Part shown: positions 10,830 to 32,000 of the stretch, one piece after another | How the letters are laid out: each line of letters begins with the position of its first letter | Numbering within the stretch: position 1 is the first letter of the stretch | Assembly: GCA_051867615.1 (NCBI GenBank) | Contig: JBJDYU010000055.1 | Coordinates: 1-32,000 of the forward strand | Reading direction: 5' to 3' | DNA: 32,000 nucleotides | Origin: Oscillospiraceae bacterium | Lineage (GTDB): Bacteria > Bacillota > Clostridia > Oscillospirales > Oscillospiraceae | Made by a program: the position numbers and the translations under genes | Notes under the pieces: model-generated | Seen by the model: the letters and a program-made list of their open reading frames with translations, nothing else | Databases searched by the model: none | What the model was told of the DNA's origin: nothing

Positions 10830-10837
10830 CGCTCACC

Positions 10838-14389: not shown

Positions 14390-14429
14390 TGTTTTCTCCT
14401 TTTGTTTTTGACTGTATAGGGGTTCTATA

Positions 14430-15578: not shown

Positions 15579-15633
15579 CAAATCCGCCCCCTTATGGCAA
15601 AAAATGAAGTTTGTTAAAATTTCCACTCAATAT

Positions 15634-15662
15634 ACTATACCACCCCTTCTCTTTTTTGTAAA
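15634..15662 (-). promoter_or_regulatory. Candidate sigma-70 promoter for the dehydratase-family/opp/C-S-lyase unit
   Basis: Minus strand: TTTACA (15662-15657), 17-nt spacer, extended -10 TGgTATAGT (hexamer 15639-15634). It lies ~55 nt upstream of the ATG at 15578 in an AT-rich gap. Confidence 0.6.
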
Positions 15663-16014
15663 ATTCAATTTACGCGGGCATCGCAGTGCAATCATCGTTT
15701 TTTTCACTGAAACGCGCTTCACCCCCTATATAAAACTCCGCAAAAGCGCGCAGGCCGTTCAGGGCGGCAGCTTCTCGGGCAAGAACGCAAAGCGCCCGGC
15801 CTTGCAGCGCCTCATAGACGATGGCAAAGCCGGGCAGGTTTCAAAAACCTTTATTTCCATCCGAACCGCTTTTCTCGCTCCACCGCGGAGTCCGGTCAGA
15901 TGTGGAATGCGCTGAAAAAAACGGGATAGTGTTTTGTCTGTGGCCGAAACGTACGGCACATTCCCGCTATTGGACGGTCTGTGCCGAATGTCGTCCTGTC
16001 ATTCGCCCCCCTAT

Positions 16015-18313: not shown

Positions 18314-18354
18314 GTTTTTCCTCCCATTTCTTTTTCGTACAGGCAGTTTTGTGT

Positions 18355-18383
18355 TTGACAAGCTCTGATGCCCACATTATAAT
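18355..18383 (+). promoter_or_regulatory. Consensus sigma-70 promoter for the TetR gene
   Basis: TTGACA (18355-18360), 17-nt spacer, TATAAT (18378-18383). It lies ~105 nt upstream of the ATG at 18488. Confidence 0.7.
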
Positions 18384-18404
18384 AGACATATGTTGAGTTT
18401 ACAA
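18376..18404 (-). promoter_or_regulatory. Candidate divergent promoter for the hdeD-like/GH3 genes, sharing the -10 palindrome
   Basis: Minus strand: TTGTAA (18404-18399), 17-nt spacer, TATAAT (18381-18376). The palindrome ATTATAAT at 18376-18383 supplies the -10 hexamer on both strands. Confidence 0.5.
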
Positions 18405-18436
18405 CAAACAGATGATTTTGTTTTGACGCGAAACCG

Positions 18437-18455
18437 ACAGACAGCCGCCGTCTGT
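18437..18455 (+). promoter_or_regulatory. Inverted repeat in the TetR leader (possible operator or leader hairpin)
   Basis: ACAGAC-N7-GTCTGT (18437-18442 / 18450-18455), located between the promoter and the TetR start codon. Confidence 0.35.
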
Positions 18456-18487
18456 TGCATTTGCAGGCGGCCACGGAGAAAAAGCCA

Positions 18488-19081
18488 ATGAAAACGAAAG
18501 AAAATCAAAGGATCGCGCTGACAAAGCGTCTGCTGAAAGAAAGTCTGCTCCGGCTCATGCCGGAAAAGAGCATTCAGCGCATCACGGTCAGCGAGCTGTG
18601 CGAGGCGTCGGAGATCAACCGCTCCACTTTTTATAACCACTACGGATGCCCGGCCGACGTGCTGAAAGAGATCGAAACGGACGTGATAGCCGATCTGGAG
18701 CGGATATGGGACACGGAGGGCGCGGAGAAAAACTGGCCGATGAACAGGCGGGTCGAGGCCCTGTGCGCCTATTTGCTGGAGCACCGGCAGGTCGCTATGC
18801 TGCTGCTCCGGGACAGCGACACAAACTCCGAGTTCGCCACCTTACTGTCTCAGGCTGCCCATGTTCGGGCCATTTATGAGCAGCTCCTGTCTCATGTTGA
18901 AAATCCGGACAGCAAGCAGCTGATGACGACTTTTCTGACCACCGGGACCTACCACATGATCCGCCAGTGGCTTCTGGAGGACATTCCCAAAACGCCGAAA
19001 GAGATGGGCGACCTGGTCTATCTGGTGGCAACGCAGGGCTGGGAAAGAAGCGCTGCGCCAAAAGTCCAAAAGCAAAACTGA
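18488..19081 (+). CDS. TetR/AcrR family transcriptional regulator
   Basis: ORF 18455..19081. Preferred ATG at 18488. N-terminal HTH is IQRITVSELCEASEINRSTFYNHY. Confidence 0.9.
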   Translation: MKTKENQRIALTKRLLKESLLRLMPEKSIQRITVSELCEASEINRSTFYNHYGCPADVLKEIETDVIADLERIWDTEGAEKNWPMNRRVEALCAYLLEHRQVAMLLLRDSDTNSEFATLLSQAAHVRAIYEQLLSHVENPDSKQLMTTFLTTGTYHMIRQWLLEDIPKTPKEMGDLVYLVATQGWERSAAPKVQKQN

Positions 19082-19105
19082 ATGCGGAGAAGCAGGCTAT
19101 AACAA

Positions 19106-19149
19106 AAGGCCGCACAGGGCAAGCAGCCCTGTGCGGCCTTTAGGTTTTT
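19106..19149. terminator. Bidirectional rho-independent terminator between convergent genes
   Basis: 14-bp perfect stem AAGGCCGCACAGGG (19106-19119) / CCCTGTGCGGCCTT (19127-19140), followed by TAGGTTTTT. An A-rich stretch on the left serves the minus-strand dehydrogenase gene. Confidence 0.85.
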
Positions 19150-19177
19150 CGCCTGTTTGTTCAGGGCGCGGCGACGC

Positions 19178-20212
19178 TCAGCACATTTTGATCACCACGT
19201 TCCCGGCATGATCCACGTCCGCCGCCGTCCGGATGGCGGCGGCCAGCTCATCCAGCGAAAGCTCATGGGTGATGATGCTCTCCAGGTCCCATCTGCCGCA
19301 GGTCATGATCTTCTGCACGTCCCGCACATCCTCCGGCATATAGCCGCCGGAACCGATGATGCTCTGCTGGGCATAGGTCATGTGCAGCAGATCCAGCTTC
19401 CTCGGCATATTGTTGACCGCCACAGAAACAAACCGGCTCTCAATTTTTCCAAGGCGCAGGAAGTCCTCCAGAATGCTTTCCGCTCCCGCCGCGTCCAGCC
19501 AGCAGTCGATATCGGCGGTCTCTCCGTTTAAGGATGGCGCCGCTCCAAAGAAAGACAGCGCTTTCGCTGAAAAGTCCTCTCTTGCCGGGTTGCAGGTCGC
19601 AAAGCCAAGCCCCTCCGCCAGCTTCAGGCGGTAGTCCGAACGGTCGCAGAGCATCACCCGGTCCATGCCGAAATACTGAAACGCCACGGCGGCGGCCAGG
19701 CCGATGGTTCCGCAGCCGAATACGACAGCAGACTGTCCCGGCACATACCGGCCCGGACCCGCCGGGATCATCCCGCGTCTGGCGGCCCGGCAGCCCACAG
19801 TGAACGGTTCGATCAGACTGGCGAGGCGGTCAGAGATCCTCTCGTCCACCGGGTACAGGGAATGGTTCTTTCGGGCGTTCGGGATCAGGATATACTCCGA
19901 AAAACCGCCGATGGTCCCCGCCCGTCTGGTGTCGTCTTTGGCGTACCGCGGATAGGGATAGACCCGCTCCCCTACGGAGAACTCCGTCACATTCCTGCCG
20001 GTGCGGACGACCCGCGAAACCGTCTCATGGCCGAACTCTCCGCCCACCGTGACCCGGTGGCCGGTATTCGGGCCGCGGGAAAAGACCGCCACATCCGTCC
20101 CGCAGATGCTGGAATACAGGTTCTGCACCAGCACGTCGTTGTCTCCCACATCCGGCAGCTCCAGCTCCCGGATCTCTATTTCTTCTTTTCCTAAATAAAT
20201 TCCCGCTTTCAT
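19178..20212 (-). CDS. Zinc-dependent medium-chain dehydrogenase/reductase (alcohol/polyol dehydrogenase-like)
   Basis: Catalytic Zn ligand contexts SICGTD and EFGHE; Rossmann motif VVFGCGTIGL. The structural-zinc Cys cluster is absent. The start overlaps the TetR stop (ATGA). Confidence 0.9.
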   Translation of the reverse strand: MKAGIYLGKEEIEIRELELPDVGDNDVLVQNLYSSICGTDVAVFSRGPNTGHRVTVGGEFGHETVSRVVRTGRNVTEFSVGERVYPYPRYAKDDTRRAGTIGGFSEYILIPNARKNHSLYPVDERISDRLASLIEPFTVGCRAARRGMIPAGPGRYVPGQSAVVFGCGTIGLAAAVAFQYFGMDRVMLCDRSDYRLKLAEGLGFATCNPAREDFSAKALSFFGAAPSLNGETADIDCWLDAAGAESILEDFLRLGKIESRFVSVAVNNMPRKLDLLHMTYAQQSIIGSGGYMPEDVRDVQKIMTCGRWDLESIITHELSLDELAAAIRTAADVDHAGNVVIKMC

Positions 20213-20811
20213 ACATCCTCCTCAGTTTCCTCATGCTGCATGACGCAGCGCTGCATCACGGAGATCACATGGTCGATGGAGTCCGCGCAGTCCCCTTTTA
20301 GCCACTGTGTGATGACCGCCATCAGCCCATGGACATAAAAGGCCATCATGTACTCCCTGTCCTGCTCCGGCACACGGAAGCGCTCCAGAATGGGCATGAA
20401 AACGTGCCGGAGCATACGGTCATATGTGTCCTCGGCACGAAAAACAGCCGGCTTTCTCACCGCCGCGGAAAAGAGCCGTTTGTGCTCTCTGATATATTCG
20501 AGGTATGGCGTCAGATACTCCGGCGTCACCAGATACAGCTCGCGCAGCGGGCAGTCATGGAGCTTTGCCACAAGCGCGTCTTTGCCCGGCCTCATATGCG
20601 CCAGGAACTGCTCGTTCAGGTATTGGATGCACTCCGTCAGCAGGTCTCCGATGGTCTCATAGTGCAGATAGAAGGTGGAGCGGTTGACGCCGGCTTTCTC
20701 GCAGAGCTCCTTCACTGTGATGTACTCGAAATCCTTCTTCTCCAGCAGGCTCAGAAACGCCTCGTCCATCCGCGCGGCTGTGTTGAAATACTTGCTCTCT
20801 GATTTATTCAT
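20209..20811 (-). CDS. TetR/AcrR family transcriptional regulator
   Basis: ORF 20209..20883. Preferred ATG at 20811 (MNKSESKYFNTAARMDEAF...). HTH is ITVKELCEKAGVNRSTFYLHY. Confidence 0.9.
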   Translation of the reverse strand: MNKSESKYFNTAARMDEAFLSLLEKKDFEYITVKELCEKAGVNRSTFYLHYETIGDLLTECIQYLNEQFLAHMRPGKDALVAKLHDCPLRELYLVTPEYLTPYLEYIREHKRLFSAAVRKPAVFRAEDTYDRMLRHVFMPILERFRVPEQDREYMMAFYVHGLMAVITQWLKGDCADSIDHVISVMQRCVMQHEETEEDV

Positions 20812-20905
20812 TGGTCTGCACCTTCTTTCCTGCTCCGGCGGCGTGCGCCGGCATATATACGGCAATGGCGGTAACGGCTCCACGCACAGAGCCAGCCGTC
20901 ATGGC

Positions 20906-21259
20906 TCAGCTCTCGCTGATCTCCCTTGCAAGCTGTATGATCTCAAACGCATATTTCTGCTTGCCCCTGGCCAGCAGCTTTTTATAAACCGGGTAGTTCA
21001 CGCCCATGCCCACCAGCCCGGCTAGGCCGAGGACAATGCCCAGGACAAACACGGCGGCGGTGCCGCTGCCGATCACCTTCATGGAAAGGCACATACCCAC
21101 GCCCGTGACGAGCGCGGCGATCATGCCGAAGGTGTAGGTGAAAACCGTGGCCGGGAGCTTGGCCCGGGCGTCCAGCTTGCGAAGGGCCACCACTTTGGAG
21201 GCGTCCTTGGGCGCGTATTCGTTGGCGAGCTGCTCCGCATAGAGCTTATCTGTGTTCAT
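20906..21259 (-). CDS. Small membrane protein of unknown function (2 TM)
   Basis: 117 aa. GGAGG precedes the ATG at 21259. It has a soluble N-terminus, then two hydrophobic helices (TVFTYTFGMIAALVTGVGMCLSM, AAVFVLGIVLGLAGLVGMGV). I recognise no motif. Confidence 0.7.
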   Translation of the reverse strand: MNTDKLYAEQLANEYAPKDASKVVALRKLDARAKLPATVFTYTFGMIAALVTGVGMCLSMKVIGSGTAAVFVLGIVLGLAGLVGMGVNYPVYKKLLARGKQKYAFEIIQLAREISES

Positions 21260-21372
21260 GGCTGTTGCCTCCTTCCTTTGATGCTCTCAGCATAGCAGAG
21301 GCGGCCGGGCAGCAGAACAACACAGAGGACGCAATCTGTTGCGTTCAAAAATATCACAGTTTTTTCTTTTTC

Positions 21373-21401
21373 AGTATACCACAAGCCGGGCGTTTTGTCG
21401 G
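21373..21401 (-). promoter_or_regulatory. Candidate promoter for the small-membrane-protein/TetR/dehydrogenase genes
   Basis: Minus strand: CCGACA (21401-21396), 17-nt spacer, extended -10 TGgTATACT (hexamer 21378-21373). Confidence 0.4.
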
Positions 21402-21425
21402 GAAATCCATGACAGAACGCCACAT

Positions 21426-21459
21426 ATAAAAAGAGGGCGGAGCCTTTCGGCGCTGCCCT
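21426..21459 (-). terminator. Candidate rho-independent terminator after the decayed dehydratase-family gene
   Basis: Minus strand reads AGGGCAGCGCC-GAAA-GGCTCCGCCCT (11-bp stem with 2 mismatches) followed by CTTTTTATAT. Confidence 0.45.
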
Positions 21460-21482
21460 GCTTTTGACTTGTTTGCTCGCAC

Positions 21483-21829
21483 ACCGCCCGCCGCTCTGCT
21501 TCACGACCTCCAGCGCCTTCCGGTACACGCCGCTGATGGGGCAGCCCATGATAAGTATCCGCGGCACACGCGCCGACACCGGGCTTCTCCGGGCAAGGAA
21601 ACGCTCCCGCGCAGCCCGGTTTGCTTCCGTCCGCGCCGCCCTGTCGGGGATGGCGCGGTTCTCCTCCAGCACTGCCAGCAGCTCGCCGCCCGGATGATCT
21701 CAGAGGGCGTATACCGGCAGAAAGCGCCGCAGATCTGCTTGCCGCTCTTCTTCAGCTCCTTGACCTTCAAAGCCTCTGACGCCGCGCGTCCGCAAATTCC
21801 TCAAAATGCTCGGGAAGTGGGACGTCCAT
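21483..21829 (-). pseudogene. Decayed paralogue of the 2-hydroxyacyl-CoA dehydratase/double-cubane family gene (frameshift, internal deletion, 3' truncation)
   Basis: The ATG at 21829 follows AAGGAGAGAAGG and gives MDVPLPEHFEEFADARRQRL*. After a frame change comes KVKELKKSGKQICGAFCRYTPSEIIRAA, and after another, GELLAVLEENRAIPDRAARTEANRAARERFLA...VPRILIMGCPISGVYRKALEVVKQSGG. These pieces align to aa ~5-50 and ~235-290 of the intact gene at 14430..15578. Confidence 0.7.
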
Positions 21830-22122
21830 ATCCTTCTCTCCTTTTCTTTCCGCTGCAGGCCAGCCGTATGCCGCAGCGTCTCAGATCCCGGCAAAAACAT
21901 CCTTTCCCCGGAAGGCATATACACCCGTCCCCTGACGAAAAAATCAGCCGTCACAATAATACCGCCACCCCCCAGCAGTATAAATATTTTCCACTTTCAT
22001 TGAATTTGCAATAAAGCCTCCCTGTTTTCCTGCTGAAATCAATGCCGGTCCGCCTCCTGCGGGCCGCCGCATACGATCATGCGCGGTCCCGGCACATGGG
22101 CGCGGGACTTTGGGAAATCCTG

Positions 22123-22151
22123 TTGAAGCGGGCAGAAAAAAGGGTTATAAT
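22123..22151 (+). promoter_or_regulatory. Near-consensus sigma-70 promoter for the 370-aa orphan gene
   Basis: TTGAAG (22123-22128), 17-nt spacer, TATAAT (22146-22151). AAAGGAGGGG (22197-22205) precedes the GTG at 22211. Confidence 0.7.
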
Positions 22152-22210
22152 AGTCAATATTGTAAGCAAAGCACAGGCGGCATTTCACAAAGCAGAAAGG
22201 AGGGGATGCT

Positions 22211-23323
22211 GTGCCGGTTTCATTGACACGCTTATCCGCGGTGGAGTTTGACCACATCCTGTACGGTCATATGACGCCCGCTATGGCTGCGGCCTATCTG
22301 CACGATGAGAAGATCCCGCTGCGCAGCTTTTCCGAGACGCTCCGGGAGATGTATCCCGGCCCCGACCTTCTCTCCCGGCTGACAGACTATTTCCTCCTGA
22401 CCGATTCCGGCGCCAACCCCCAGTCTCTGGGCAAGAAGCTGCGCAACTGGCTGTCCGGACGCAACCAGCCGGCCAGCCGGAGCGATTTCTTCCGCATCGC
22501 CTTCGCCCTGCGGCTGAGCGAGCAGCAGCTGGACTATCTGCTGGGGCTGTTCACGGACTACGGCATCCAGTACCGGAACGGCTGGGAGGTGGTGTTCGCC
22601 TGGTTTCTGCGCAACGGCTACGGCTATCTGGAGGCGCAGGAGTTTTTCGTCTCCCTCCCTTCGGTGCCGGGGACGGAGCGGGCGGAGAAGAACTGGACCT
22701 CCCGCCTGACCCACGAGCTGCAAAACGAATTCCAGACGATCTCCACCCTGCAGGACCTGCGGGCCTGCTATCTGAAAAACCTGGGCTACTTCGGCTCGCT
22801 GCACCTGCGCAGCTATTACTACTTCGAGCAGTACTTAAACCAGCTCATCCACCCCACCCCGGTGTGGGAGGGGGACTCGGGGCCGGACTACTCCATCGAG
22901 GCCATCACGAACACCTATCTGTCCATGCAGATGCCCTCGGAGCGGAAGCGCTCCCACTACAATCTGGTGCAGAAGCTCATCAAGCAGAACTGGCCCAACG
23001 CCACCGCCATCAAGAACATCCGCAACCATGTGGAGGATGTTCCCCGGAAGCTGCTGCTGTTGCTCTATGTGGTAACGGAGAACTGCGGCGGCGCCGACGC
23101 CCCCTACCGGGAGCTGGACGAGAGCTACATCACGCCGGAGGAGCGGGTGGAGGACCACTGGTGGACGCTGAACGCCATGCTGACGGACTGCGGCATGGCC
23201 CTGCTGGATCCCCGCAATCCCTTTGACTGGCTGATCCTGTACGCCATCTCCGCCGACGAAAGCGAATTTATGAGCGACCGCATGGAGCAGGTCATCGAGT
23301 ATGTGTTTTCCGACGTGAAATAA
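22211..23323 (+). CDS. Hypothetical cytoplasmic protein, 370 aa, possible N-terminal HTH-like segment
   Basis: A long ORF in the coding-like frame with its own promoter, RBS and terminator. KKLRNWLSGRNQPASRSDFFRIAFALRLSEQQLDYLL resembles an XRE-type HTH. There are no TM segments and I recognise no catalytic motif. Confidence 0.8.
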   Translation: MPVSLTRLSAVEFDHILYGHMTPAMAAAYLHDEKIPLRSFSETLREMYPGPDLLSRLTDYFLLTDSGANPQSLGKKLRNWLSGRNQPASRSDFFRIAFALRLSEQQLDYLLGLFTDYGIQYRNGWEVVFAWFLRNGYGYLEAQEFFVSLPSVPGTERAEKNWTSRLTHELQNEFQTISTLQDLRACYLKNLGYFGSLHLRSYYYFEQYLNQLIHPTPVWEGDSGPDYSIEAITNTYLSMQMPSERKRSHYNLVQKLIKQNWPNATAIKNIRNHVEDVPRKLLLLLYVVTENCGGADAPYRELDESYITPEERVEDHWWTLNAMLTDCGMALLDPRNPFDWLILYAISADESEFMSDRMEQVIEYVFSDVK

Positions 23324-23326
23324 GCG

Positions 23327-23361
23327 AACCGCCCCGCGCCAATGGCGCGGGGCGGTTTTTT
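23327..23361. terminator. Rho-independent terminator shared by convergent genes
   Basis: 12-bp GC stem CCGCCCCGCGCC (23329-23340) / GGCGCGGGGCGG (23344-23355) with a 3-nt loop, then TTTTTT (23356-23361). The hairpin lies 15 nt from the kinase stop at 23376. The U-tract is present only for the plus strand. Confidence 0.85.
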
Positions 23362-23375
23362 CTGTGTTTGACCGA

Positions 23376-26300
23376 TCAATCATCCACAACCTGGGGCGCG
23401 TTTCCGGTCAGGAACGCCCCGGGGAGGGGAATGACCTCAAAGCCCTCATGGGTGTAGACGGTGCCGTAGTTGTTCAGGATACCGGACACATAGGTGTTGC
23501 GCCAGGAGTGGAAGACGCCGTAGTTGTTCACAACGCCCTGCAAAATGGGGGAATCCTCCGTGTCATCGTGGCCCTGCTCCAGAACACCGTAATTGTTAAA
23601 CGTGCCGGTCAGCCAGATCTCATACCCCGACCAGCCGTCCAGCTGAAAACTGCCGTGGTTTTCCACAGTACTGCCGTCCAGGGACAGGGCCGACATGCGG
23701 GATTCAAAGCTGCCGTTCTCGCCGATCTCAACGGTGCAGTCCAGCAGTTCCAGGTCATCCAGGGAATAGAAGGTCCCCTCCTCAACACGGAGCGCTGCCT
23801 GCTCCATGCTGAGCGGCCCCAAGTTGATGATCCGGCCGCCGCCCTCCAAGGTGACTGCCGCGCCGGGCAGATATTGCGGAGCGGAATGACTTCTGTGCAT
23901 CAACAGGGACGCGCCGGTGCTGACGCTGCCGATTCCGCTGACGGTGACGCTGCCGATGTTGGAGATGCGCCCGCGGTCCAGCACCACCGCGCCGTCCCGG
24001 ACCGCCAGATCGTGGCCGGTCAGGTCCACGGTGCCGTGCAGATACAAAAACGCGTTCTCCTCCTCAAAGGTCAGGTCGCCGCTCGCCATGGTCAGGGACG
24101 CGCCGCTGGTAAGAGCCAGCCCCTTGGTGACGGTCAGGCTGCCGTCCAGTGTGATGTCCATACCGTCGGGTATGATCACCAGGGTGTAAGAATCGTCCGC
24201 CAGGGCGGCTTTCAGTTCGTCCCCGCTGCTCACCCGGACGGTGCGCTCGTCGGCGGAGCTCCAGGAGAAGGGTATCCACCGCAGGCAGGAGCGGTCGACC
24301 GCCCCGGTATAAGAGGGCTCCATTCCGTCATGCGTCATGTCGTCGCCAGAATATGTGACCACGCCGCTGAACTGCAGGATGCTGCCGGGGGCCATGCTGA
24401 GGGAGCTGGTGGGTTCGGCCGTCTCGATCAGGCCCATGCCGTCCAGCATACCGCCGCTCTCCACCTCGATGGAACCCAGGTTGATCAGGCAGCCGTCCAC
24501 CAGAAGTCTGCCGTTGTACTCCACCCGGATGACGCCGCAGTTGGTCATCCAGGTACTGCCGCGCAGGGAGACGGAGGGGTCGTATTGATTGCCGGTCACC
24601 ACCAGTTCGCCGCTGTTGTACAGCCTGTCGCAGGTCAGGTTAAAGTCGCCGCTCTGCTCGTCACCGAAATGGGTCATGACGCCCAGATTAAAGATATGAT
24701 TGCCGGAGGAGGCATTGGAGAAAGCGCTGTTGATCTCGCCGTAATTGATCAGGGTGCCCCGGTCTTCCAGCCACAGCGCCCCCTCAATGGTGCCGTAGTT
24801 GACGACGGTGCAGGGATTGTCCGCGCCGTCGTCGCGCCAATCTCCGGTCTGGAGCGCTCCCAGCAGGGTGCCCCGGTTGATCAGGCAGGTGCCGTTGACG
24901 AGCCAGCTGAATCTTTTCTCTTCCTCATCCGGGTCTTCCGGTGCGGTGACGGTGACGCCCTCGCTGATCAGAACGGGGACGGGGGACGCCCGGTTTTCAT
25001 CGGTGACGGTAAAGTCTCCGTCGATGACGATAGCGGTGGTCCGGCTGCTGCTGATCGCGGCCCGGTATTCCTCGAAGGTGGTCACATGGACGGCGTCGGC
25101 AAACAGCTCCTCCTCACACAGGGTGATGACCCATTCGGAGTCCTTCCTCACTTCATAGGACCCGCCGAAAAGATCCGTGCGTGCGCCGCCGCCCAGCGTC
25201 AGGTCGCTTTCATGCTCCAGCCACAGCTCTGATATGCTCAGTTCGCCGCCGTCCGTCACCGTGACGGTACCGCCGCCCTCGGTGCGGAGCAGGCCTTCCG
25301 TGTAGAGGGCGCCCTCGATCACCAGAGCGCCGCCTGCGCCGACGGTAATGGACTGGCCCGCCGCGTTGATGTCGCAGCCCGCCAGCAGGGTGACGGGCTT
25401 GGTGATCTCCAGCGTGCCGCCGAACATGATGCTCAGCTGCCCGTCGATGATGACCGCGGCCACGCTGTCATTCGCCAGAGCGGCCCGCAGCTCCTCCGGG
25501 GTGGTGACATGGGCCGTCTCCCCGGCGGTCGCATCGGGGTTCTGGGATGGATCGGACGCCGTGCCGCCGCCCCGGGGCAGGATCACCGCCAGCAAAATGA
25601 GCAGCAGCGCCGCCGCTCCGGCGACGGCTCCCCATACGCCTCCCGGCACCTTCCACCGCGCCCGGCAGGGCTGACCGTCCCCGTCTATCTCAGCGGGGGC
25701 GGGTGCTTCTTCCGTCTTCGGCGGCTCCTCCGCCGCGCTCCGGGTCTCCGGAAGCGGCGCGGTTTCCGCCACAGTCTTCGCCTCCGGCTCCGGCGCGGTC
25801 TCCGGCACGGGCACGAAAACCTCCGGCGCGGGGGCGTACAGGTCGGCGCGCAGCTCCTCTACGGTCTGATAGCGCCGGTTGGGACGGATCATCAGGCCCT
25901 TCAGCAGCGCCGCCTCCTGATGGGGCGAAATGTCCACGCCCAGCTTGCTGGGCAGCAGCAGTCCGTCCTCCACGATGCGGTCCAGCGCCTGAGGCGGCGC
26001 TTTCCCGGTCAGGCAGAAATAGATGGTGGCGCAGAGGGAATAAATGTCCGTCCACGGCCCCTGGCCCTTTTGCTGGTACTGCTCCAGTGGAGCGTAGCCG
26101 TGCTTCAGGGCGATGGTCAGGGTCTCCGTGCCCCGGGAGGTCTCCCGGGCGCAGCCGAAATCCAGCAGCCGCACCCTGCCGTTTTCCAGCATCAGGTTGT
26201 CCGGCGAGATGTCCCGGTGGATCAGCCCGGTCTCATGCATGATGGACAGGGCCTGGAACAGGGGCTCCAGCGTCTGAAACAGCTCCTTCGGCGGGATGCG

Positions 26301-26783
26301 CCCACCCTTTTGCTCCACCAGATGGCTGAAGGTGGTCCCCTCGATGTACTCCATGACGATATAGGCGGTGTTGTTGGCCTGGAAAAAGTCCCGGACGCCC
26401 ACGATCACCTGCTGCTTGTCCATCCGGGCCATGGTCCGGGCCTCGTCCAGAAATTTCTGCTTGCCCCGCTCAAAGCTCTGGGCGGACAGGCCCATGAAGC
26501 TGGTCACATCCAGCGTCGCGGCGGCGTTGCGGGTGGAGCGGTCCACCGGATAATACTCCTTGATGGCCACCTTCAGCTCCAGCCGCAGATCGCAGCCGAT
26601 ATAGGTGATGCCGAAGCCGCCCTCGCCCAGCACCCGTCCCACCAGATACCTATCCAGCAGGACGGTCCCCGGCGGCAGGTGGTGGGGCGAAGGCACATAG
26701 CTTCCCGCCGTCAGGCCGCAGACCGGACAGCTTTCGCCCGGGCGCACCCGGGTCATGCAATAGGGGCAATACTGCTTATCCAC
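23376..26783 (-). CDS. Membrane Ser/Thr protein kinase: N-terminal zinc ribbon, Hanks kinase domain, TM, large repetitive beta-helix-like ectodomain
   Basis: ORF 23376..26801. Preferred GTG at 26783 has GAAGGAGG 8 nt upstream. Motifs: CPYC..CPVC, G-loop GEGGFG, VAIKE, HRDISPDN, DFG, YAPLEQ. A Pro/Ala/Glu linker is followed by TM GVWGAVAGAAALLLILLAVIL and ~730 extracytoplasmic aa with repeated NYG-type units. No PASTA repeats. Confidence 0.9.
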   Translation of the reverse strand: MDKQYCPYCMTRVRPGESCPVCGLTAGSYVPSPHHLPPGTVLLDRYLVGRVLGEGGFGITYIGCDLRLELKVAIKEYYPVDRSTRNAAATLDVTSFMGLSAQSFERGKQKFLDEARTMARMDKQQVIVGVRDFFQANNTAYIVMEYIEGTTFSHLVEQKGGRIPPKELFQTLEPLFQALSIMHETGLIHRDISPDNLMLENGRVRLLDFGCARETSRGTETLTIALKHGYAPLEQYQQKGQGPWTDIYSLCATIYFCLTGKAPPQALDRIVEDGLLLPSKLGVDISPHQEAALLKGLMIRPNRRYQTVEELRADLYAPAPEVFVPVPETAPEPEAKTVAETAPLPETRSAAEEPPKTEEAPAPAEIDGDGQPCRARWKVPGGVWGAVAGAAALLLILLAVILPRGGGTASDPSQNPDATAGETAHVTTPEELRAALANDSVAAVIIDGQLSIMFGGTLEITKPVTLLAGCDINAAGQSITVGAGGALVIEGALYTEGLLRTEGGGTVTVTDGGELSISELWLEHESDLTLGGGARTDLFGGSYEVRKDSEWVITLCEEELFADAVHVTTFEEYRAAISSSRTTAIVIDGDFTVTDENRASPVPVLISEGVTVTAPEDPDEEEKRFSWLVNGTCLINRGTLLGALQTGDWRDDGADNPCTVVNYGTIEGALWLEDRGTLINYGEINSAFSNASSGNHIFNLGVMTHFGDEQSGDFNLTCDRLYNSGELVVTGNQYDPSVSLRGSTWMTNCGVIRVEYNGRLLVDGCLINLGSIEVESGGMLDGMGLIETAEPTSSLSMAPGSILQFSGVVTYSGDDMTHDGMEPSYTGAVDRSCLRWIPFSWSSADERTVRVSSGDELKAALADDSYTLVIIPDGMDITLDGSLTVTKGLALTSGASLTMASGDLTFEEENAFLYLHGTVDLTGHDLAVRDGAVVLDRGRISNIGSVTVSGIGSVSTGASLLMHRSHSAPQYLPGAAVTLEGGGRIINLGPLSMEQAALRVEEGTFYSLDDLELLDCTVEIGENGSFESRMSALSLDGSTVENHGSFQLDGWSGYEIWLTGTFNNYGVLEQGHDDTEDSPILQGVVNNYGVFHSWRNTYVSGILNNYGTVYTHEGFEVIPLPGAFLTGNAPQVVDD

Positions 26784-26820
26784 GGACCGCACCTCCTTCA
26801 CCGGGCGAAAAATTGTTTAT

Positions 26821-26849
26821 ACTATACCAAGTTTTTGCTCTTTTCACAA
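26821..26849 (-). promoter_or_regulatory. Candidate internal promoter upstream of the large kinase gene
   Basis: Minus strand: TTGTGA (26849-26844), 17-nt spacer, extended -10 TGgTATAGT (hexamer 26826-26821). It lies in the only AT-rich gap of the operon (26802-26876). Confidence 0.5.
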
Positions 26850-26876
26850 GCGTTCTCCCCTCAGTTTACGACGGAC

Positions 26877-28040
26877 CTACAGCAAAAGCAGGAGCAGGAG
26901 GATGACGATAACGACGCCCGCCAGGCCCAGCAGCAACTTCAGCCCATGCTTACGCAAAAAGTCGGGCAGGCTCTGCCGGGGCGTGGGCGTGACCGCTTCG
27001 GTCGCGGGACTGTCCGTATTCTCCTGCAGCGGCTGGGAGGCGCCGCTCCAGGTGGACTGCACCAGGGTCTTTTCCAGCCGGGAGGCCAGCTCCTCCATGT
27101 TCTGGGGCCGGACCGTGGGCTGGAGGGCCAGGCCCCACAGCAAAAGCTCCTCCTGCTCCCGGCTCAGGGCCGCGCCCAAAGCGCTTGGCGGGAGCAGCGG
27201 GTCGTTCTGGCCGTCAAAGGTGGCGCTCAGCCGCTCCGGGGCGGCGGGAGGCACCTTGCCCGTCAGGCAATAATACAGCGTGGCGCAGAGCGCGTACACG
27301 TCGGTATACGGTCCCTGCCCCCGGGTCTGATACTGCTCGATAGGGGCGAAGCCGGGCTTGAGGACCACCGTCATGGACTTGCCGTCCTCCATGGAGCGGG
27401 CGCAGCCGAAGTCCAGCAGCGTCAGCGTCCCATCCGGCATGAGCATGATGTTGTCCGGCGCGATGTCCCGGTGCAGCACGCCCGCCTCGTGGATGGCCCC
27501 CAGGTCGCGCATCAGGGGCAGGACCTTTTTCAGCAGGAGGTTCGGTTCAAAGCGGCTCTGGCTCTGCAGCAGGTCCCGCAGGGTCGTGCCGTTCAGGTAG
27601 TCCATGACCATATAGGCGGTGCCGTTGGCCTCGAAAAAGTCCAGCACATGGACGATGGAGGGGGTGCCCGCCACCGCCCGCAGCATACTGGCCTCGCTGA
27701 GGAAGCTGTGCATCCCCTGCCGGTAGATCTCCTCCATCTGGGTCGTGGGACATACGGAGTGGTCGGGCCGCCGCTGGGGCTGGCAGCGGGTGGGGAAATA
27801 TTCCTTGATGGCCACCACCTTGCCGGAGGTCAGCTCCTTGGCGATATAGGTCAGGCCGAAGCCGCCGTCCCCCTTCACCTCACCGAACAGGAAGGTGTGT
27901 CCCTTCTGGCTGCGCAGCACCGTGCCGATGGGCAGCTGGTGCGGCGCGGCGCGCTGGTCCACGTCCCGCCCGCACACGGGGCAGAAAGCGTCCTCGCCGG
28001 AAAGTGCCTGCATACAATGGGGACAGAATCTATCCCGCAT
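26877..28040 (-). CDS. Tail-anchored Ser/Thr protein kinase with N-terminal zinc ribbon and no ectodomain
   Basis: Motifs: CPHC..CPVC, G-loop GDGGFG, VAIKE, HRDIAPDN, DFG, FAPIEQ. The last 21 aa, LKLLLGLAGVVIVILLLLLLL, run straight into the stop codon. The ATG at 28040 is 1 nt from the upstream stop. Confidence 0.9.
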   Translation of the reverse strand: MRDRFCPHCMQALSGEDAFCPVCGRDVDQRAAPHQLPIGTVLRSQKGHTFLFGEVKGDGGFGLTYIAKELTSGKVVAIKEYFPTRCQPQRRPDHSVCPTTQMEEIYRQGMHSFLSEASMLRAVAGTPSIVHVLDFFEANGTAYMVMDYLNGTTLRDLLQSQSRFEPNLLLKKVLPLMRDLGAIHEAGVLHRDIAPDNIMLMPDGTLTLLDFGCARSMEDGKSMTVVLKPGFAPIEQYQTRGQGPYTDVYALCATLYYCLTGKVPPAAPERLSATFDGQNDPLLPPSALGAALSREQEELLLWGLALQPTVRPQNMEELASRLEKTLVQSTWSGASQPLQENTDSPATEAVTPTPRQSLPDFLRKHGLKLLLGLAGVVIVILLLLLLL

Positions 28041-28041
28041 C

Positions 28042-29400
28042 TCAGTCCGGCCTCCTCTCCGCGATCACGAAGCTCTGCTCCTGGGAGCCGAGGAAAAACG
28101 CCTCTCCGGGCCGGAGCTGCACGGCCTGCTCCGCCGCCAGCCTGCGTCCCGGCGCCAGGAAGGTGCCGTGGCTGGAGCCGAGGTCCTTGATATACACGCA
28201 GCCATCTTCATACCACACCGCGCAGTGCCGTGCGCTGACGCCCGGGGTATTGGCCGGGAACACCACGCCGCACTGCTGCGGGTCGCGTCCCAGAATGACC
28301 GCATCCCGCCTGCCGATCATAAAGCGCTTGTCCTCCAGCGCGCCGGAAACGCCCTGAATACGGAAGCCGGAATCGCCGGACGCGGGAGCGGAGGCCGATG
28401 CGGGCACAGCCGGGGCCGCTTTCTGTTCCTGCGGGCCCTTTTTCTTTTTCAGCACCACCAGCAGCACCACGGCGATCACCGCCGCGGCAGCCACCGCCAG
28501 AGCGATCCAGAGCCAGGGCGCGGAGGAAGCCTCCTCCGCCATTTCGTAGGGAACGTCGTGGAGCCTGAGCATGGGCAGGACTTCGTCGATGTTCACGGCG
28601 TAATAGATCTTATCCGTGGAGTTGGACACCGTGAAGGTGTTGACGCCCAGCACCGCTCCCGCCTCGTTGACCAGCGGGCCGCCGGAATTGCCCGCCATGA
28701 TGACGGCGTCGGTCTGTATGGCGGAAACGCCGGTGCCGCTGGTGGTCATCAGGCGGCTGACCACGCCCTTGTTCACCGTGGCGTCCGTCTCGCTCCAGGA
28801 GGAGGTGGAGGATATGTACTCATTCTCCGCAAGGCTGGGATAGCCCACCGTGTAGACAGTGCTGCCCACCATTTCCTCCGTGGGGCTCATCAGCTTCAGC
28901 GGCGAGCGCTTGTCCGTGGGAGCGGCCAGACGGAGCAGGGCCACGTCCTTGATGGAATCGGAGTCCACCAGATAGGCCTCCACATAGTCCTCGGGCGCAA
29001 AGTACACCCGGATCATGGCCCGGCCGGAGTAGACGCTGTTCTGCGTCCAGCTGGCCGCCATATCCAGCAGCTGGCTGTAGGTGTAGAACCCGCCGAAGAC
29101 ATCCAGCAGGGTGTCAAAGTCCATCTGGATCAGCTCGCCGGAGCCGCAGGCGATATAGTCGTCGATCACATGGTGATTGGTGATCAGGTACTGGGGCGCT
29201 TCGCCGGAGCTGCCCACAAAAAAGCCGGTGCCCCAGCCGAACTCCAGCCAGGTCCCCTCCAGCTCAAAGCCGATGTCCACAACAGCCACGCTGCCGCGCA
29301 CATCGGACACGGCGGCGGACGTACCGGCGGCACGGGCAAAGCCGGTCAGGCTGCACAGGATGCAAAACGTGGCCACAAAGGCGGTCAGTCTTCGCTTCAT
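28042..29400 (-). CDS. Secreted trypsin-like S1 serine protease fused via one TM helix to a cytoplasmic FHA domain
   Basis: ORF 28042..29511. Preferred ATG at 29400 (GGGAGG upstream) gives signal peptide MKRRLTAFVATFCILCSLTGFARA. Triad contexts: LITNHHVI, KDVALLRL, AGNSGGPLVN. TM WLWIALAVAAAAVIAVVLLVVL is followed by KKKK. The C-terminal FHA reads ILGRD...GVSARHCAVWYEDGCVYIKDLGSSHGTFL. Confidence 0.88.
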   Translation of the reverse strand: MKRRLTAFVATFCILCSLTGFARAAGTSAAVSDVRGSVAVVDIGFELEGTWLEFGWGTGFFVGSSGEAPQYLITNHHVIDDYIACGSGELIQMDFDTLLDVFGGFYTYSQLLDMAASWTQNSVYSGRAMIRVYFAPEDYVEAYLVDSDSIKDVALLRLAAPTDKRSPLKLMSPTEEMVGSTVYTVGYPSLAENEYISSTSSWSETDATVNKGVVSRLMTTSGTGVSAIQTDAVIMAGNSGGPLVNEAGAVLGVNTFTVSNSTDKIYYAVNIDEVLPMLRLHDVPYEMAEEASSAPWLWIALAVAAAAVIAVVLLVVLKKKKGPQEQKAAPAVPASASAPASGDSGFRIQGVSGALEDKRFMIGRRDAVILGRDPQQCGVVFPANTPGVSARHCAVWYEDGCVYIKDLGSSHGTFLAPGRRLAAEQAVQLRPGEAFFLGSQEQSFVIAERRPD

Positions 29401-29420
29401 CTTTCTTTTCCTCCCTTTTC

Positions 29421-30134
29421 TCACGCGGTCACCCAGACCGCAGCGGCGGTATTGTTGTCGTTGTCGGCGGGGATACGGCTGTTCAGCAGCGCCCGCATCC
29501 GGTCCAGCCAATCCTGCGGAGACGCGGCCGCGGCCAGCTCCCGCTCCATTTCGCTTTCATACACATACTCCCAAAAGCCGTCGGAGCAGAGCAAAAACGC
29601 GTGGCTCCCCGGCTCCAGCGCGGTCTCGCCGGCGTCAGCCTCTCCGCCGCCCTGCTGGCCCAGCGCCCGGTAAATGTGGCTGCGGTCCTCATGGAAGCGG
29701 ATCTCCTCCGGCGTGATCTGGCCCAGCAGCACCGCGATCTGCGAGGCGCTGTGGTCCCGGGTCTGCCAGACGAGACGCCCCCCGGCGAAATGGTACAGCC
29801 GGGAGTCCCCGGCATAGGCCCAGTCAAAGCGGCCCTTTTCCAGAGCCAACACCACCACCGTGGTCTTCATCTGGCAGCGCGGCGTCTGCATGGACAGCAC
29901 CTGCTGGTGCGCCTTGCGCACCAGCTCGCAAAGGCTCTGGGGCGTCGCCCCTCCCTGCCAGCCGTCCAGAATGGTCCGGGCGGCGGCGGATGACGCCGCT
30001 TCTCCGCCGCCATGGCCGCCCAGCCCGTCCGCCAGCACCGCGCACAGCCGCTCTCCGTCCAGCTGTCTGACCAGCACCGTGTCCTCGTTGCAGGGACGGC
30101 CTCCCGCGGCGGAATAGCTTGCATATTGCATCAC
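29421..30134 (-). CDS. PP2C-family Ser/Thr phosphatase (soluble)
   Basis: Motifs NEDTVLV, LADGLGGHGGGEAAS, CSDGFWEY, DNNTAAAVWV. AGGAGG lies 10 nt upstream of the GTG at 30134 (ATG at 30131 is an alternative). Confidence 0.9.
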   Translation of the reverse strand: MMQYASYSAAGGRPCNEDTVLVRQLDGERLCAVLADGLGGHGGGEAASSAAARTILDGWQGGATPQSLCELVRKAHQQVLSMQTPRCQMKTTVVVLALEKGRFDWAYAGDSRLYHFAGGRLVWQTRDHSASQIAVLLGQITPEEIRFHEDRSHIYRALGQQGGGEADAGETALEPGSHAFLLCSDGFWEYVYESEMERELAAAASPQDWLDRMRALLNSRIPADNDNNTAAAVWVTA

Positions 30135-30155
30135 AGCGCTACGGCCTCCTATCCG

Positions 30156-31115
30156 TTATTGCAGCTGCCCGGCGCTCCGCGCTCCGTCGGCGGCGCACTC
30201 CAGGATCACGGCAGTGTAGTTGTCCTGATTGCTGTAATTCTTCTCCTGGACCGCCGCCCGGATGGCCTGCGCCGCTTCTTCCGGCCCGGCCTCCAGCGCC
30301 CGGGCCAGCTCCTCGCCGCTCAGCGCGTTATACACGCCGTCGCTCATCAAAATCAGCTTATCGCCGCTCAGCAGGCGGATGGGCGCGGCGGGCAGGTCGA
30401 TACCCGCGAGCTTCCCCATGCCCAAAAAGCTGGTGAGTCCATTCCCCTGGGGATCGGAAAGGGCTTCCTGCACGGACAGCTCTCCGTTGACCGCCCGCAG
30501 GGCCAAGTCGTTTTGATAGGTGTGCTCCCGGTTGAGCTGGGTCAGGACTCCGCCGCGGTAGAGGCAGATGCGGCTGTCGCCGATGCTCAGAAAGGAAAAG
30601 CTCCCCTCCCTGACCAGGCCCATAGCCAGCGTGGAACCGCTCCGGCGGCAGCCCTCCGGCCCCAGCAGCTCGTTGACCGCCTGCGCCGCGCTTTGCGCCA
30701 GAGTCAGCAGCAGCTGCTCCGGCCCCGCCGCGTCCCGGCACAGAATAAATTCGTCCAAAACGGCCTGCACCGCCGCGGCGCTGACCTTGTCGCCGTCGGA
30801 CAGGCCGCCCATGCCGTCCGCCACCACCGCCAAAAGGCCGTGGGTGGACATCAGCGCCTCGTCCGAAACGGCAAAGCAGTCCTGCTGCCCCTCGCGGGCG
30901 CCCTGCTCATGCAGCTTGCCGACGGAGACCCGATCCACCCGGGGAAGCTCCGCCGCGCGCTTTCCGCCACTGTGCAATCTCGCCTTTCTCACGCCCCAGA
31001 CAGCCAGCAGCAACAGCAGCGCAGCCACTGCGAGCAAGGCCGCCGCAGCCGCCCACAGCGGCAGCGTCACGCCTTGCAGCGCTCCGCTCTCACCGTAAAC
31101 CAGCCACTCACGCAT
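30156..31115 (-). CDS. Membrane-anchored PP2C-family Ser/Thr phosphatase (N-terminal TM)
   Basis: ORF 30156..31202. Preferred ATG at 31115 overlaps the upstream stop (ATGCGTGA). TM LPLWAAAAALLAVAALLLLLAVWGV is followed by RKARLH. PP2C motifs: QDCFAV, VADGMGGLSDGD, MSDGVYN, DNYTAVIL. Confidence 0.88.
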   Translation of the reverse strand: MREWLVYGESGALQGVTLPLWAAAAALLAVAALLLLLAVWGVRKARLHSGGKRAAELPRVDRVSVGKLHEQGAREGQQDCFAVSDEALMSTHGLLAVVADGMGGLSDGDKVSAAAVQAVLDEFILCRDAAGPEQLLLTLAQSAAQAVNELLGPEGCRRSGSTLAMGLVREGSFSFLSIGDSRICLYRGGVLTQLNREHTYQNDLALRAVNGELSVQEALSDPQGNGLTSFLGMGKLAGIDLPAAPIRLLSGDKLILMSDGVYNALSGEELARALEAGPEEAAQAIRAAVQEKNYSNQDNYTAVILECAADGARSAGQLQ

Positions 31116-31752
31116 TGCCCCGTTCCTCGCTGTTCCAGCTGAACTGTTCGCCGCAGAGGCTGACGAAGACCAGCTGGGTGGTGCCGATGGTGATGCGGTC
31201 ATAATTGTGCAGCTGCGTGCTTCCGCCGATGACAGGCATATTGTTCACCAGCAGCACGTTTTTGCCCAGCTCATGGGCGATATAGAACTGGCGGGTCTGG
31301 GGGACGTAGGTGACGTTGGCATCCTTCTCCGCAGAAATGGTGCTGTCGCCCCGGATGCAGATATCGCCCGCCTCCCGACCGATGTAGTTGTAGCCGGTGT
31401 GGATGCGGTAATCCGTGCCGCGGCAGGGGCCTTCCACCGCCACCAGCCAGCCTACCACCGGCGCGGGAGCGCCCGCGGGCGTGGAGCTGTCCACGAACTG
31501 GGTCTTGCCCATGCGCTCAGACGCGCCGCTGCCCGGATTGGGGGCGATGGTGGAATTGAAATTGCCATACCCGCCGGGCGCGGCGGCCCCGTCCAGCTCC
31601 GCCGTGGCGCCGCAGGAAGCGGCGCCCCCGGCAAAGGGGTCCACGGTGGGCGAGAAGCTGCCTGAGCCGCAATAGGGACAGCTGGCATAGCGGTTAGCGT
31701 CGTAGTAGTGGCCCTGGGGGCAGCTGATGATCTTCTGACGGATTTCTGCCAT
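31108..31752 (-). CDS. Zinc-ribbon protein with C-terminal FHA-like domain
   Basis: N-terminus MAEIRQKIISCPQGHYYDANRYASCPYCG, then a Gly/Ala/Pro-rich linker. The C-terminal ~100 aa have an FHA-like pattern (GWLVAVEGPCRGTDYRIHTGYNYIGREAGDICIRGDSTIS...LLVNNMPV...ITIGTTQLVF), but the canonical S-R-H is replaced. GAGGAGG precedes the ATG. Confidence 0.75.
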   Translation of the reverse strand: MAEIRQKIISCPQGHYYDANRYASCPYCGSGSFSPTVDPFAGGAASCGATAELDGAAAPGGYGNFNSTIAPNPGSGASERMGKTQFVDSSTPAGAPAPVVGWLVAVEGPCRGTDYRIHTGYNYIGREAGDICIRGDSTISAEKDANVTYVPQTRQFYIAHELGKNVLLVNNMPVIGGSTQLHNYDRITIGTTQLVFVSLCGEQFSWNSEERGNA

Positions 31753-31790
31753 GATGATTTCCTCCTCAATGAATCGTTATGTTTTTTTGT

Positions 31791-32000
31791 TTACGCGCCA
31801 AAAATCTCGATTTGAAACAGGTTATTGGAACTGCCCAGATAGAAGCGGGTACCGGAGACCACCCGCTCGGGATAATTGGGGGGCAGCTGCCGGCCATTGT
31901 CCAGGAATGTGCCGTAGCGGGAGCCCAGATCCACCAGCACCGGAATGTCCCGCTCCCAGCGAAGGCAGCAATGCCGGCTGCTGATCCCCGGCGTCCCATC
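31791..32000 (-). CDS. FHA domain protein, C-terminal 69 codons only (gene continues beyond the window)
   Basis: This frame is not in the supplied ORF track because it has no in-window start. The reverse-strand frame ending at TAA (31793-31791) reads DGTPGISSRHCCLRWERDIPVLVDLGSRYGTFLDNGRQLPPNYPERVVSGTRFYLGSSNNLFQIEIFGA, which carries the canonical FHA core S-R-H ... DLGS-x-x-GT. Confidence 0.8.
   Translation of the reverse strand, partial: DGTPGISSRHCCLRWERDIPVLVDLGSRYGTFLDNGRQLPPNYPERVVSGTRFYLGSSNNLFQIEIFGA

Follow-up and report, generated by a model that had tools for sequence, protein, structure and literature searches.

The DNA analyzed here, which we call the window, is a stretch of 32,000 nucleotides from an Oscillospiraceae bacterium (assembly GCA_051867615.1, contig JBJDYU010000055.1), and from position 23376 to the window end it carries seven open reading frames (ORFs) that lie head to tail on the minus strand. 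We named these g1–g7 in the direction of their transcription and use g8 for an extra gene that converges on g7. The seven ORFs encode two FHA proteins (g1 and g2), two PP2C phosphatases (g3 and g4), an S1 protease joined through a transmembrane (TM) helix to an FHA domain (g5, the fusion) and two Hanks kinases (g6 and g7); g8 encodes a soluble helical protein. The kinase, PP2C, FHA and S1 domains, which an original prediction had called from motifs in the translations, were backed by profile searches (Pfam and NCBIfam). The cluster is a conserved, self-contained chromosomal module, and our favored reading, held tentatively and at slightly less than an even chance, is that it constitutes a self-contained membrane-associated Ser/Thr phospho-signaling module of gut Clostridia.

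Organization and Ends of the Operon

The seven minus-strand genes had been described as tightly packed, and all of the coordinates given for their junctions were found in the sequence. The g1 stop at 31791 is followed by the g2 start at 31752, the g2 stop and g3 start overlap at 31115–31108 (letters ATGCGTGA), and further tight junctions lie at 30156/30134, 29421/29400 and 28042/28040. The only real spacer of the cluster is that between g6 and g7, which contains a promoter-like element (26821–26860, minus strand; GGAGA-N4-TTGTGA-17-(TG)TATAGT) that was found by promoter scan as TTGTGA-17-TATAGT with a TG extension and read in the sequence. This site had been predicted correctly, but the bounds given for the gap (26802–26876) needed correction. 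The start of g7 is most likely the GTG at 26783 rather than 26801, because a ribosome-binding site (GAAGGAGG) occupies 26800–26793 and the NCBI protein has 1135 residues, and the gap therefore runs from 26784 to 26876.

The operon had been expected to continue past the window edge. An exact-protein look-up, which yielded only short Logan contigs, returned one from the same organism (L001) that carries g2 exactly and that provided both the complete g1 and the operon start. L001 adds the full g1 and 184 nucleotides upstream of it, nothing more; because a terminator hairpin of the upstream gene precedes g1 on this contig, the operon starts at g1, about 700 nucleotides beyond the window. At the other end, a bidirectional intrinsic terminator with a 15-pair stem, 12 pairs of which are G-C, is common to the convergent g7 and g8 (23326–23358, both strands), and the scan that gave this hairpin found no terminator of comparable strength inside the cluster. 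The tight junctions and the terminators at both ends, without a strong internal one, support the operon structure. An Rfam scan of positions 20800–32000 gave no match. The seven-gene unit stands as originally drawn but was too small, because g8 and a cluster-specific promoter element, both described below, had been missed.

Conservation of the Cluster

A scan for the fusion in one genome per species found at least 441 stretches that encode it, and 80 loci were kept and mapped with the eight window proteins. Forty of these loci, which we call type A, carry the genes in the order g2-g3-g4-g5-g6-g7, in all save two truncated contigs. The type A carriers include Ruthenibacterium, Allofournierella, Acutalibacter, the cultured Pseudoflavonifractor phocaeensis, Blautia, Acetatifactor and other Lachnospiraceae, so that the hosts span Oscillospiraceae, Lachnospiraceae and other Clostridia, at least two families. 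A further 29 loci (type B; 30–45% identity) are arranged as a kinase or kinases, g2, PP2C, fusion and PP2C, followed by VWA_2-FHA and RDD-FHA proteins, and their carriers include Intestinimonas aquisgranensis and Lachnospiraceae bacterium YSB2008. The fusion gene lies between two PP2C genes in the 29 type B loci and between PP2C and kinase genes in the 40 type A loci.

Flanking genes were not common to the loci by tblastn. The proposed gene set is thus syntenic, with the same order in 40 loci across families and unrelated flanks, and chance adjacency is ruled out by the recurrence of this order outside the window beside differing flanks. One metagenome-assembled genome (MAG), CAZSAJ01, carries both a type A locus (L024) and a type B locus (L043), and because a single genome bin holds the two, types A and B are paralogous and not replacements of each other. 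An origin in a mobile element was also considered and rejected: the full-length fusion was not found on plasmids, g8 was not found in phages, and the neighbors in the window serve metabolism and transport (dehydrogenases, a peptide transporter and a GH3 enzyme, beside ordinary regulators).

Some loci were unusual in their setting. In L086/L087, a type B cluster (1–5330 and 13740–16230) has a giant LRR/SLH surface protein on one flank and, on the other, a pair of phage-type integrase genes accompanied by NikA-like and DnaB-like ones, which point to an integrative element alongside. Three further cluster loci (L017, L040 and L030) come from bins labeled Bacteroides, Muribaculum and Atopobiaceae, respectively, and reflect either mis-binning or transfer outside Clostridia.

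The Protease-TM-FHA Fusion

The fifth gene (28042–29400, minus strand) encodes 452 residues with a signal peptide, an S1 protease domain (Pfam Trypsin_2, E 3e-21), a TM helix and a cytoplasmic FHA domain (E 7e-12). Its catalytic triad is His77, Asp152 and Ser239, the TM helix spans residues ∼296–318 by hydropathy and the FHA domain residues 368–435. We assigned the topology of g1–g7 from hydropathy and the positive-inside rule, and for g5 this predicts the protease outside, one TM helix, and the FHA domain inside the cell; the signal peptide is lipobox-like in several homologues. The protein is identical to an NCBI protein from a MAG (P0001). An alignment of 28 homologues showed the triad and the G/S/H residues of the FHA domain to be invariant, and both domains were kept in 120/120 of the homologues listed, of at least 415 relatives at 90% clustering.

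A profile search of solved structures returned HtrA, DegP and DegS as the nearest relatives of the protease domain. There was no Pfam match to a PDZ domain in g5, nor is there room for one, because the TM helix starts ∼20 residues past the protease domain. Named family models were matched far below their cut-offs: the degP_htrA_DO model scored 80 bits (cut-off 416), the FhaB_Rv0019c model 31 bits (cut-off 125), and the MarP family model of NCBIfam matched the protease domain with an E value of 2e-11.

Two Zinc-ribbon Kinases and a β-Helix Sensor

Both kinases begin with a CxxC...CxxC zinc ribbon motif and keep the AIKE, HRD and DFG motifs. The first, g6 (26877–28040, minus strand), is a tail-anchored Hanks kinase of 387 residues (Pkinase, E 6e-32) in which the zinc motif starts at residue 6; the Pfam Zn_Ribbon_1 match is below threshold (E 3e-4, 20.9 bits versus a cut-off of 25). 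Its kinase domain is predicted to lie inside the cell, held by a C-terminal TM tail (residues 364–387) without an ectodomain. The second, g7 (23376–26783, minus strand), is a receptor kinase of 1135 residues (1141 if counted from 26801) with Pfam matches to Pkinase (E 5e-31) and Pectate_lyase_5 (E 2e-9). It is laid out as a zinc ribbon and kinase domain inside, a Pro/Glu/Thr-rich linker, one TM helix, and an ectodomain of 725 residues outside (23379–25553).

The ectodomain had been called β-helix-like, and a confident AlphaFold2 model together with its structural matches now identifies it as a parallel β-helix. The model has a predicted local distance difference test score (pLDDT) of 86.5 and a predicted template modeling score (pTM) of 0.87, with short regular strands. 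Foldseek matched it to antigen 43 (E 2.8e-5), PL6 alginate lyases, serine-rich repeat adhesins, tailspikes and pectate lyases, and the solved structures that it resembles most are right-handed parallel β-helices. Asn-x-Gly pairs recur every 18–25 residues in the alignment of ectodomain homologues, and precomputed annotation gave a kinase-domain match on 55 of 57 such homologues. The ectodomain is the fastest-evolving part of g7 and diverges far faster than the kinase domain: across 36 homologues the median pairwise identity is 68.8% for the zinc ribbon and kinase and 28.7% for the ectodomain. Some loci carry three or four receptor kinases in a row with differing ectodomains. Locus L090 has three consecutive kinases of ∼1100 residues (11171–21119) that are convergent to one g8 homologue, and three or four kinases are also present at L051, L055 and L063. 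In L005 (Blautia sp. GCA_023667395.1), a 157-residue gene and a 412-residue reverse transcriptase (RVT_1) lie just past the g8 homologue (17776–19808); the latter could belong to a group II intron, or to a diversity-generating retroelement with the variable ectodomain of the kinases as a possible target.

FHA Readers and Phosphatases

Only the C-terminal FHA part of g1, the first gene of the operon, is in the window (31791–32000, minus strand; Pfam FHA, E 1e-9 on 69 residues). The complete protein, encoded at 185–898 of L001, has 237 residues and joins a DUF805 domain with three TM helices (E 1.6e-26) to a cytoplasmic FHA domain (E 6e-13). It scored 30.6 bits with the FhaB_Rv0019c model (cut-off 125), and for the TM-FHA parts of both g1 and g5 the best named match was FhaB/FipA (E about 2e-7).

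The second gene (31108–31752, minus strand) encodes a cytoplasmic zinc-ribbon-FHA protein of 214 residues with a C-x3-H...C-x2-C motif (Cys11, His15, Cys25 and Cys28) and a divergent FHA domain at residues ∼98–205. Three FHA readers had been proposed for the operon, and of these g1 and g5 are supported directly by Pfam. In the window protein itself, the g2 FHA domain falls short of the Pfam threshold (E 0.055), and its support comes from a homologue at L088:5801–6445, which is 38% identical over its full length (E 8e-39) and has a clear Pfam FHA match; a homologue in L091 likewise has the domain. Among 71 aligned g2 homologues the zinc ligands are invariant and the Gly-Arg and Ser of the FHA domain are kept. 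The low-complexity linker of g2 contains a conserved threonine, Thr84, 13–17 residues ahead of the FHA domain, where the local sequence is GKTQFVD for type A clusters and GKTVGVF for type B, and 54 of the 71 sequences fit T-x-x-[VILM] and so are hydrophobic at +3. This is the position on which FHA domains select, and GarA and OdhI are switched by such a threonine beside their own FHA domain, which together make Thr84 a good candidate acceptor site.

The phosphatase had been predicted to be duplicated, with one copy anchored and one soluble, and this agrees with a TM segment in g3 and none in g4. The g3 product (30156–31115, minus strand; PP2C_2, E 6e-13) has 319 residues, is tethered by a single N-terminal TM segment (residues 12–45) followed by a basic stretch that places the catalytic domain in the cytoplasm, and contains the motifs DGMGG, GDSR, SDG and DNYT. 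The g4 product (29421–30134, minus strand; PP2C_2, E 1e-7) is a soluble protein of 237 residues with no TM segment by hydropathy. Metal-binding DGxGG, GDSR, SDG and DNxT motifs are kept in both, and the Stp1/IreP model scored 104 bits for g3 and 130 bits for g4 (cut-off 230).

A Convergent Eighth Gene

The g8 gene (22211–23323, plus strand) encodes a soluble all-α protein of 370 residues, was recognized by synteny, and is preceded by a promoter-like site (22123–22151, plus strand; TTGAAG-17-TATAAT, 10/12 matches in the promoter scan) and an AGGAGG ribosome-binding site. It is convergent to g7 in 27 of the 40 type A loci, that is, in 27 of the 30 in which the contig allows a call, with identities of 51–77%, as high as those of any operon gene. 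Four type B loci have a g8-like gene immediately upstream of a large kinase, both on one strand. When g8 homologues served as the starting point of two look-ups, large receptor kinases were recovered again, in one case with the whole cluster. The convergent position, the identity, the linkage in type B and these look-ups together make g8 a conserved eighth member of the cluster.

The protein had no match in Pfam (searched whole, as halves and as residues 40–125), NCBIfam, PADLOC, PHROGs or a sequence profile search of the PDB. Its AlphaFold2 model (pLDDT 83.4, pTM 0.82) contains 19 helices, and Foldseek gave no match at E ≤ 1e-3 in the PDB or BFVD. Weak, non-significant BFVD matches of the model are enriched in helix-turn-helix (HTH) repressors, and we treat a possible HTH fold as a lead only. 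The family comprises 1026 clusters at 50% identity (E ≤ 1e-3), nearly all of them stand-alone proteins of 350–450 residues, and Pfam scans of ten long or distant members gave no domain. One member, P0304 (450 residues), matches g8 over its first 277 residues and then has a weak partial Pkinase match (E 0.001); it may represent a fusion of g8 with a kinase or a gene call affected by a frameshift, and is consistent with the same-strand adjacency of g8 and kinase genes. A search upstream of g8 turned up no conserved non-coding element outside close relatives.

A Cluster-specific Promoter Element

A conserved element, GGAAA-N4-TTGGACG(A), lies ahead of the first type A gene (g1, or g2 where g1 is absent); it stands 72–162 nucleotides before the start codon and is followed after 19–21 bp by an extended −10 (TGnTAnAAT). 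It was present in 32 of 42 loci by exact pattern and in four more with ≤2 mismatches; in the organism of the window it is at 84–125 of L001. A loose form of the pattern gave 79 matches in 2.6 Mb, as against ∼30 estimated by chance, and about half of those observed are at this position. The GGAAA-N4-TTGGACG element is absent from type B loci and from one clade of four loci, which also lack g8. A box of the form GG(A/G)AA-N3-5-TTGTGAAA occurs in about 10 of 35 related g6-g7 spacers, that of the window included.

We compared the element by eye with consensus sequences for extracytoplasmic function (ECF), σ54 and σH factors, and rejected a σ-factor reading on the misfit of the spacings. Because 19–21 bp to the −10 is too long for a standard −35, the element may instead be the site of a regulator. 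The only cluster-encoded candidates to act there would be g8, a possible regulator, and g2.

Comparison with Known Systems

Knowledge of Hanks kinase/PP2C/FHA modules comes mainly from Actinobacteria and the type VI secretion pathway, and the textbook case in Firmicutes is a single PASTA kinase with one phosphatase. The original prediction likened the operon to the mycobacterial fhaA-fhaB-pstP-rodA-pbpA-pknA-pknB cluster, and the likeness stands for domain order but not at the level of equivalogs, for which no threshold was met. The two share a pair of FHA genes, one of them small and TM-anchored, a membrane PP2C, and two Hanks kinases that end the operon. In the mycobacterial cluster the FHA proteins are recruited by kinase phospho-threonines. 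There, however, rodA and pbpA lie between the phosphatase and the kinases, where the present operon has only a second, soluble PP2C and the S1 protease-TM-FHA (Trypsin_2-FHA) gene in mid-operon. A β-helix stands in place of PknB-type PASTA domains, and the PknB_PASTA_kin model matched the kinase domains only, at 154 and 131 bits (cut-off 450). The zinc ribbons on both kinases and on one FHA protein and the extra convergent gene are likewise unlike the mycobacterial arrangement.

With DegS and HtrA, g5 shares an S1C-type domain, a His-Asp-Ser triad, membrane tethering and an outward-facing protease. In DegS, the PDZ domain keeps the membrane-tethered protease off until a signal arrives. DegS and HtrA have at least one C-terminal PDZ domain, whereas g5 has none and instead has an anchor C-terminal to the protease and then a cytoplasmic FHA domain. 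Because this FHA domain is cytoplasmic, any regulatory input through it to g5 would come from inside the cell.

The pairs of PASTA kinase and Stp-type phosphatase (PrkC-PrpC, StkP-PhpP and IreK-IreP) have in common with our cluster a one-TM Hanks kinase with an extracellular sensor and a PP2C encoded in one operon. They differ in that here a β-helix replaces PASTA and there are two kinases, two phosphatases and operon-encoded FHA proteins, and the comparison says nothing about function. In the type VI secretion system (T6SS) pathway PpkA-PppA-Fha1, a receptor kinase phosphorylates an FHA scaffold and switches on an envelope machine, and the PP2C reverses this. Unlike that pathway, our cluster has no T6SS genes in the window and belongs to a Gram-positive host, and the TagH/Fha (VI_FHA) model scored 24 bits against a cut-off of 120.

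Operons of vWA, kinase, PP2C and FHA genes are known (PMC7159879; Deinococcus DRA0331-0334, bioRxiv 10.64898/2026.01.23.701218), and the Esr threat-sensing pathway has been reported as confined to Actinomycetes (bioRxiv 2026, PMC13622651). Our cluster shares with these a kinase/phosphatase pair, an FHA output protein that often bears a zinc finger, and a sequence-diverse surface sensor; a vWA-FHA protein is shared by type B only, and no AAA or vWA domain was matched in the eight cluster proteins. Of the features of those systems, a MoxR ATPase, a separate β-propeller sensor and a sortase-like linker are absent here, where the sensor is fused to the kinase; conversely, the protease-FHA fusion and g8 are features of this cluster and not of the Esr/vWA systems. 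Membership in a known anti-phage system was rejected after a search of PADLOC-DB 2.0, which gave only generic matches to kinase (PD-T4-6 and mad6), PP2C (PDC-M21C) and protease domains, and none for g1, g2 or g8.

No publication on the gene set or on a Trypsin-FHA fusion was found in the full-text literature, with most subscription journals outside its coverage. Within the same literature we found no characterized system of this composition. Nor could we find a described counterpart of the protease-TM-FHA fusion, of the family to which g8 belongs or of the conserved promoter element.

Proposed Mechanism and Rival Readings

If the cluster is a phospho-signaling module, a surface ligand would bind the β-helix and activate g7, probably together with g6; from the fold, the ligand would most likely be a polysaccharide or another cell-surface polymer. 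The kinases would then phosphorylate threonines of their own Pro/Thr-rich juxtamembrane linkers and Thr84 of g2. The FHA domains of g1, g2 and g5 would dock on these phospho-threonines and gather the membrane FHA proteins around the active receptor. In g5, regulation would fall to the cytoplasmic FHA domain, as it falls to the PDZ domain in DegS, such that phosphorylation inside the cell might cluster and switch on, or position, the protease outside it. The two phosphatases g3 and g4 would reset the system, and g2, g8 or both could relay the signal to an output in the cytoplasm, perhaps at the level of transcription through the conserved promoter element.

Several observations weigh against this picture. 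Phosphorylation, FHA-kinase binding, protease activity and substrate are steps that we infer throughout, reasonable as they are, and the ligand cannot be deduced from a β-helix fold. The FHA domains depart from the canonical binding site: in g5 and g1 a His, Tyr or Phe replaces the Asn of the Asn-Gly motif (DLGS[ST][HYF]GT), which is, judged from the alignments, a trait of the subfamily, and the canonical SxxH histidine of the g2 domain has become Asp in the clade of the window, so that this domain may bind differently or not at all. The g1 gene was found in 28 of the 40 type A loci and is missing from 12, and is thus not essential to the core. For g8, DNA binding is a possibility suggested by non-significant HTH fold matches and by its co-occurrence with the promoter motif, a co-occurrence that reflects essentially one clade and has an exception in L041, where the motif is present with no g8 within range.

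Three other readings compete with this one, and each draws on part of the same evidence. One of them takes g5 to be an ordinary HtrA-type quality-control protease whose FHA tail only localizes it, the kinases being adjacent without signaling meaning. The protease domain is HtrA-like in sequence, yet the FHA fusion is invariant in all 120 listed homologues of at least 415, the gene keeps a fixed position in 40 type A and 29 type B loci, and g5 lacks the PDZ domain that defines HtrA quality-control proteases; we consider this reading very improbable. Alternatively, the cluster might be a regulator of cell-envelope growth and division, a clostridial counterpart of FhaA-FhaB-PstP-PknA-PknB in which the kinases sense wall material, the FHA proteins organize division or elongation proteins, and the protease processes a wall hydrolase, as MarP processes RipA. 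The shared order of domain types (FHA, FHA, PP2C, ..., kinase, kinase), the FhaB/FipA matches of the TM-FHA parts of g1 and g5 (E about 2e-7) and the match of the g5 protease domain to the MarP model (E 2e-11) speak for such a role. It is nevertheless distinctly doubtful, given that PASTA domains, rodA and pbpA are all lacking, that no equivalog cut-off was met, that most Clostridia lack the cluster and its surroundings vary from locus to locus, which does not resemble a core division locus, and that type A and type B occur together in one genome bin (L024 and L043).

The third possibility is a surface threat-sensing (conflict) pathway analogous to Esr, in which the variable ectodomains would recognize an antagonist at the cell surface (for example a phage, an epibiont or the adhesin or toxin of a competitor), and the relay would trigger a defense that includes the external protease. 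It would account for the rapid evolution of the g7 ectodomain, the presence at some loci of three or four receptor kinases whose ectodomains differ, and the patchy distribution beside unrelated flanks. The vWA-FHA protein of type B, as in vWA-kinase-phosphatase-FHA systems, points the same way (PMC7159879; PMC13622651), as do the prominence of zinc-finger-FHA output proteins in Esr and the matches of g6 and g7 to the kinase models of the PD-T4-6 and mad6 defense systems in PADLOC. Against this, there is no MoxR ATPase among the eight proteins, type A is without a vWA protein, and the PADLOC matches are at the level of generic domains only. The neighbors are metabolic and transport genes and not a defense island, the full-length fusion was not found on plasmids nor g8 in phages, and Esr has been reported as confined to Actinomycetes. 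We regard a role in threat sensing as clearly unlikely. A bolder combination, which we put forward as conceivable if on the unlikely side, is that the fusion is a new type of transmembrane switch, by which phospho-threonine signaling gates extracytoplasmic proteolysis, and g8 the founder of a DNA-binding family that reads GGAAA-N4-TTGGACG, the two acting jointly in a widespread surface-sensing pathway of gut Clostridia that is possibly an Esr-like threat sensor.

As a phospho-signaling module, the cluster is much richer than the kinase and phosphatase pair of the Firmicute textbook case and is common in gut Clostridia. By linking a phospho-threonine reader inside the cell to a protease outside it, g5 suggests a path that may lead straight from kinase signaling to extracellular proteolysis, the output that the original prediction had put forward as possible. 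Experimental handles are offered by the conserved linker threonine, the conserved promoter element and a confidently folded protein family without known relatives, and cultured carriers exist in Pseudoflavonifractor phocaeensis and Intestinimonas aquisgranensis.

Neighboring Genes in the Window

Tightly spaced minus-strand ORFs at 7670–14389 end in a family-5 solute-binding protein (12818–14389, Pfam) and look like an oligopeptide-type ATP-binding cassette (ABC) transporter operon. Two of them (8858–9832 and 9837–10829), putative ABC ATPases, have tblastn matches in several of the loci compared. Closer to the cluster, two TetR-family regulators (18455–19081, plus strand; 20209–20883, minus strand) flank a zinc-type alcohol dehydrogenase (19178–20212, minus strand) and a 117-residue membrane protein, neighbors that are not shared with other cluster loci. 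The ∼900 nucleotides between g8 and the next gene contain no convincing ORF at 21260–22000. On the minus strand, this segment resembles the intact 2-hydroxyacyl-CoA dehydratase gene at 14430–15626 in two short collinear stretches (E 1e-5 and 2e-4), and it looks like the remnant of a decayed gene beside the cluster.

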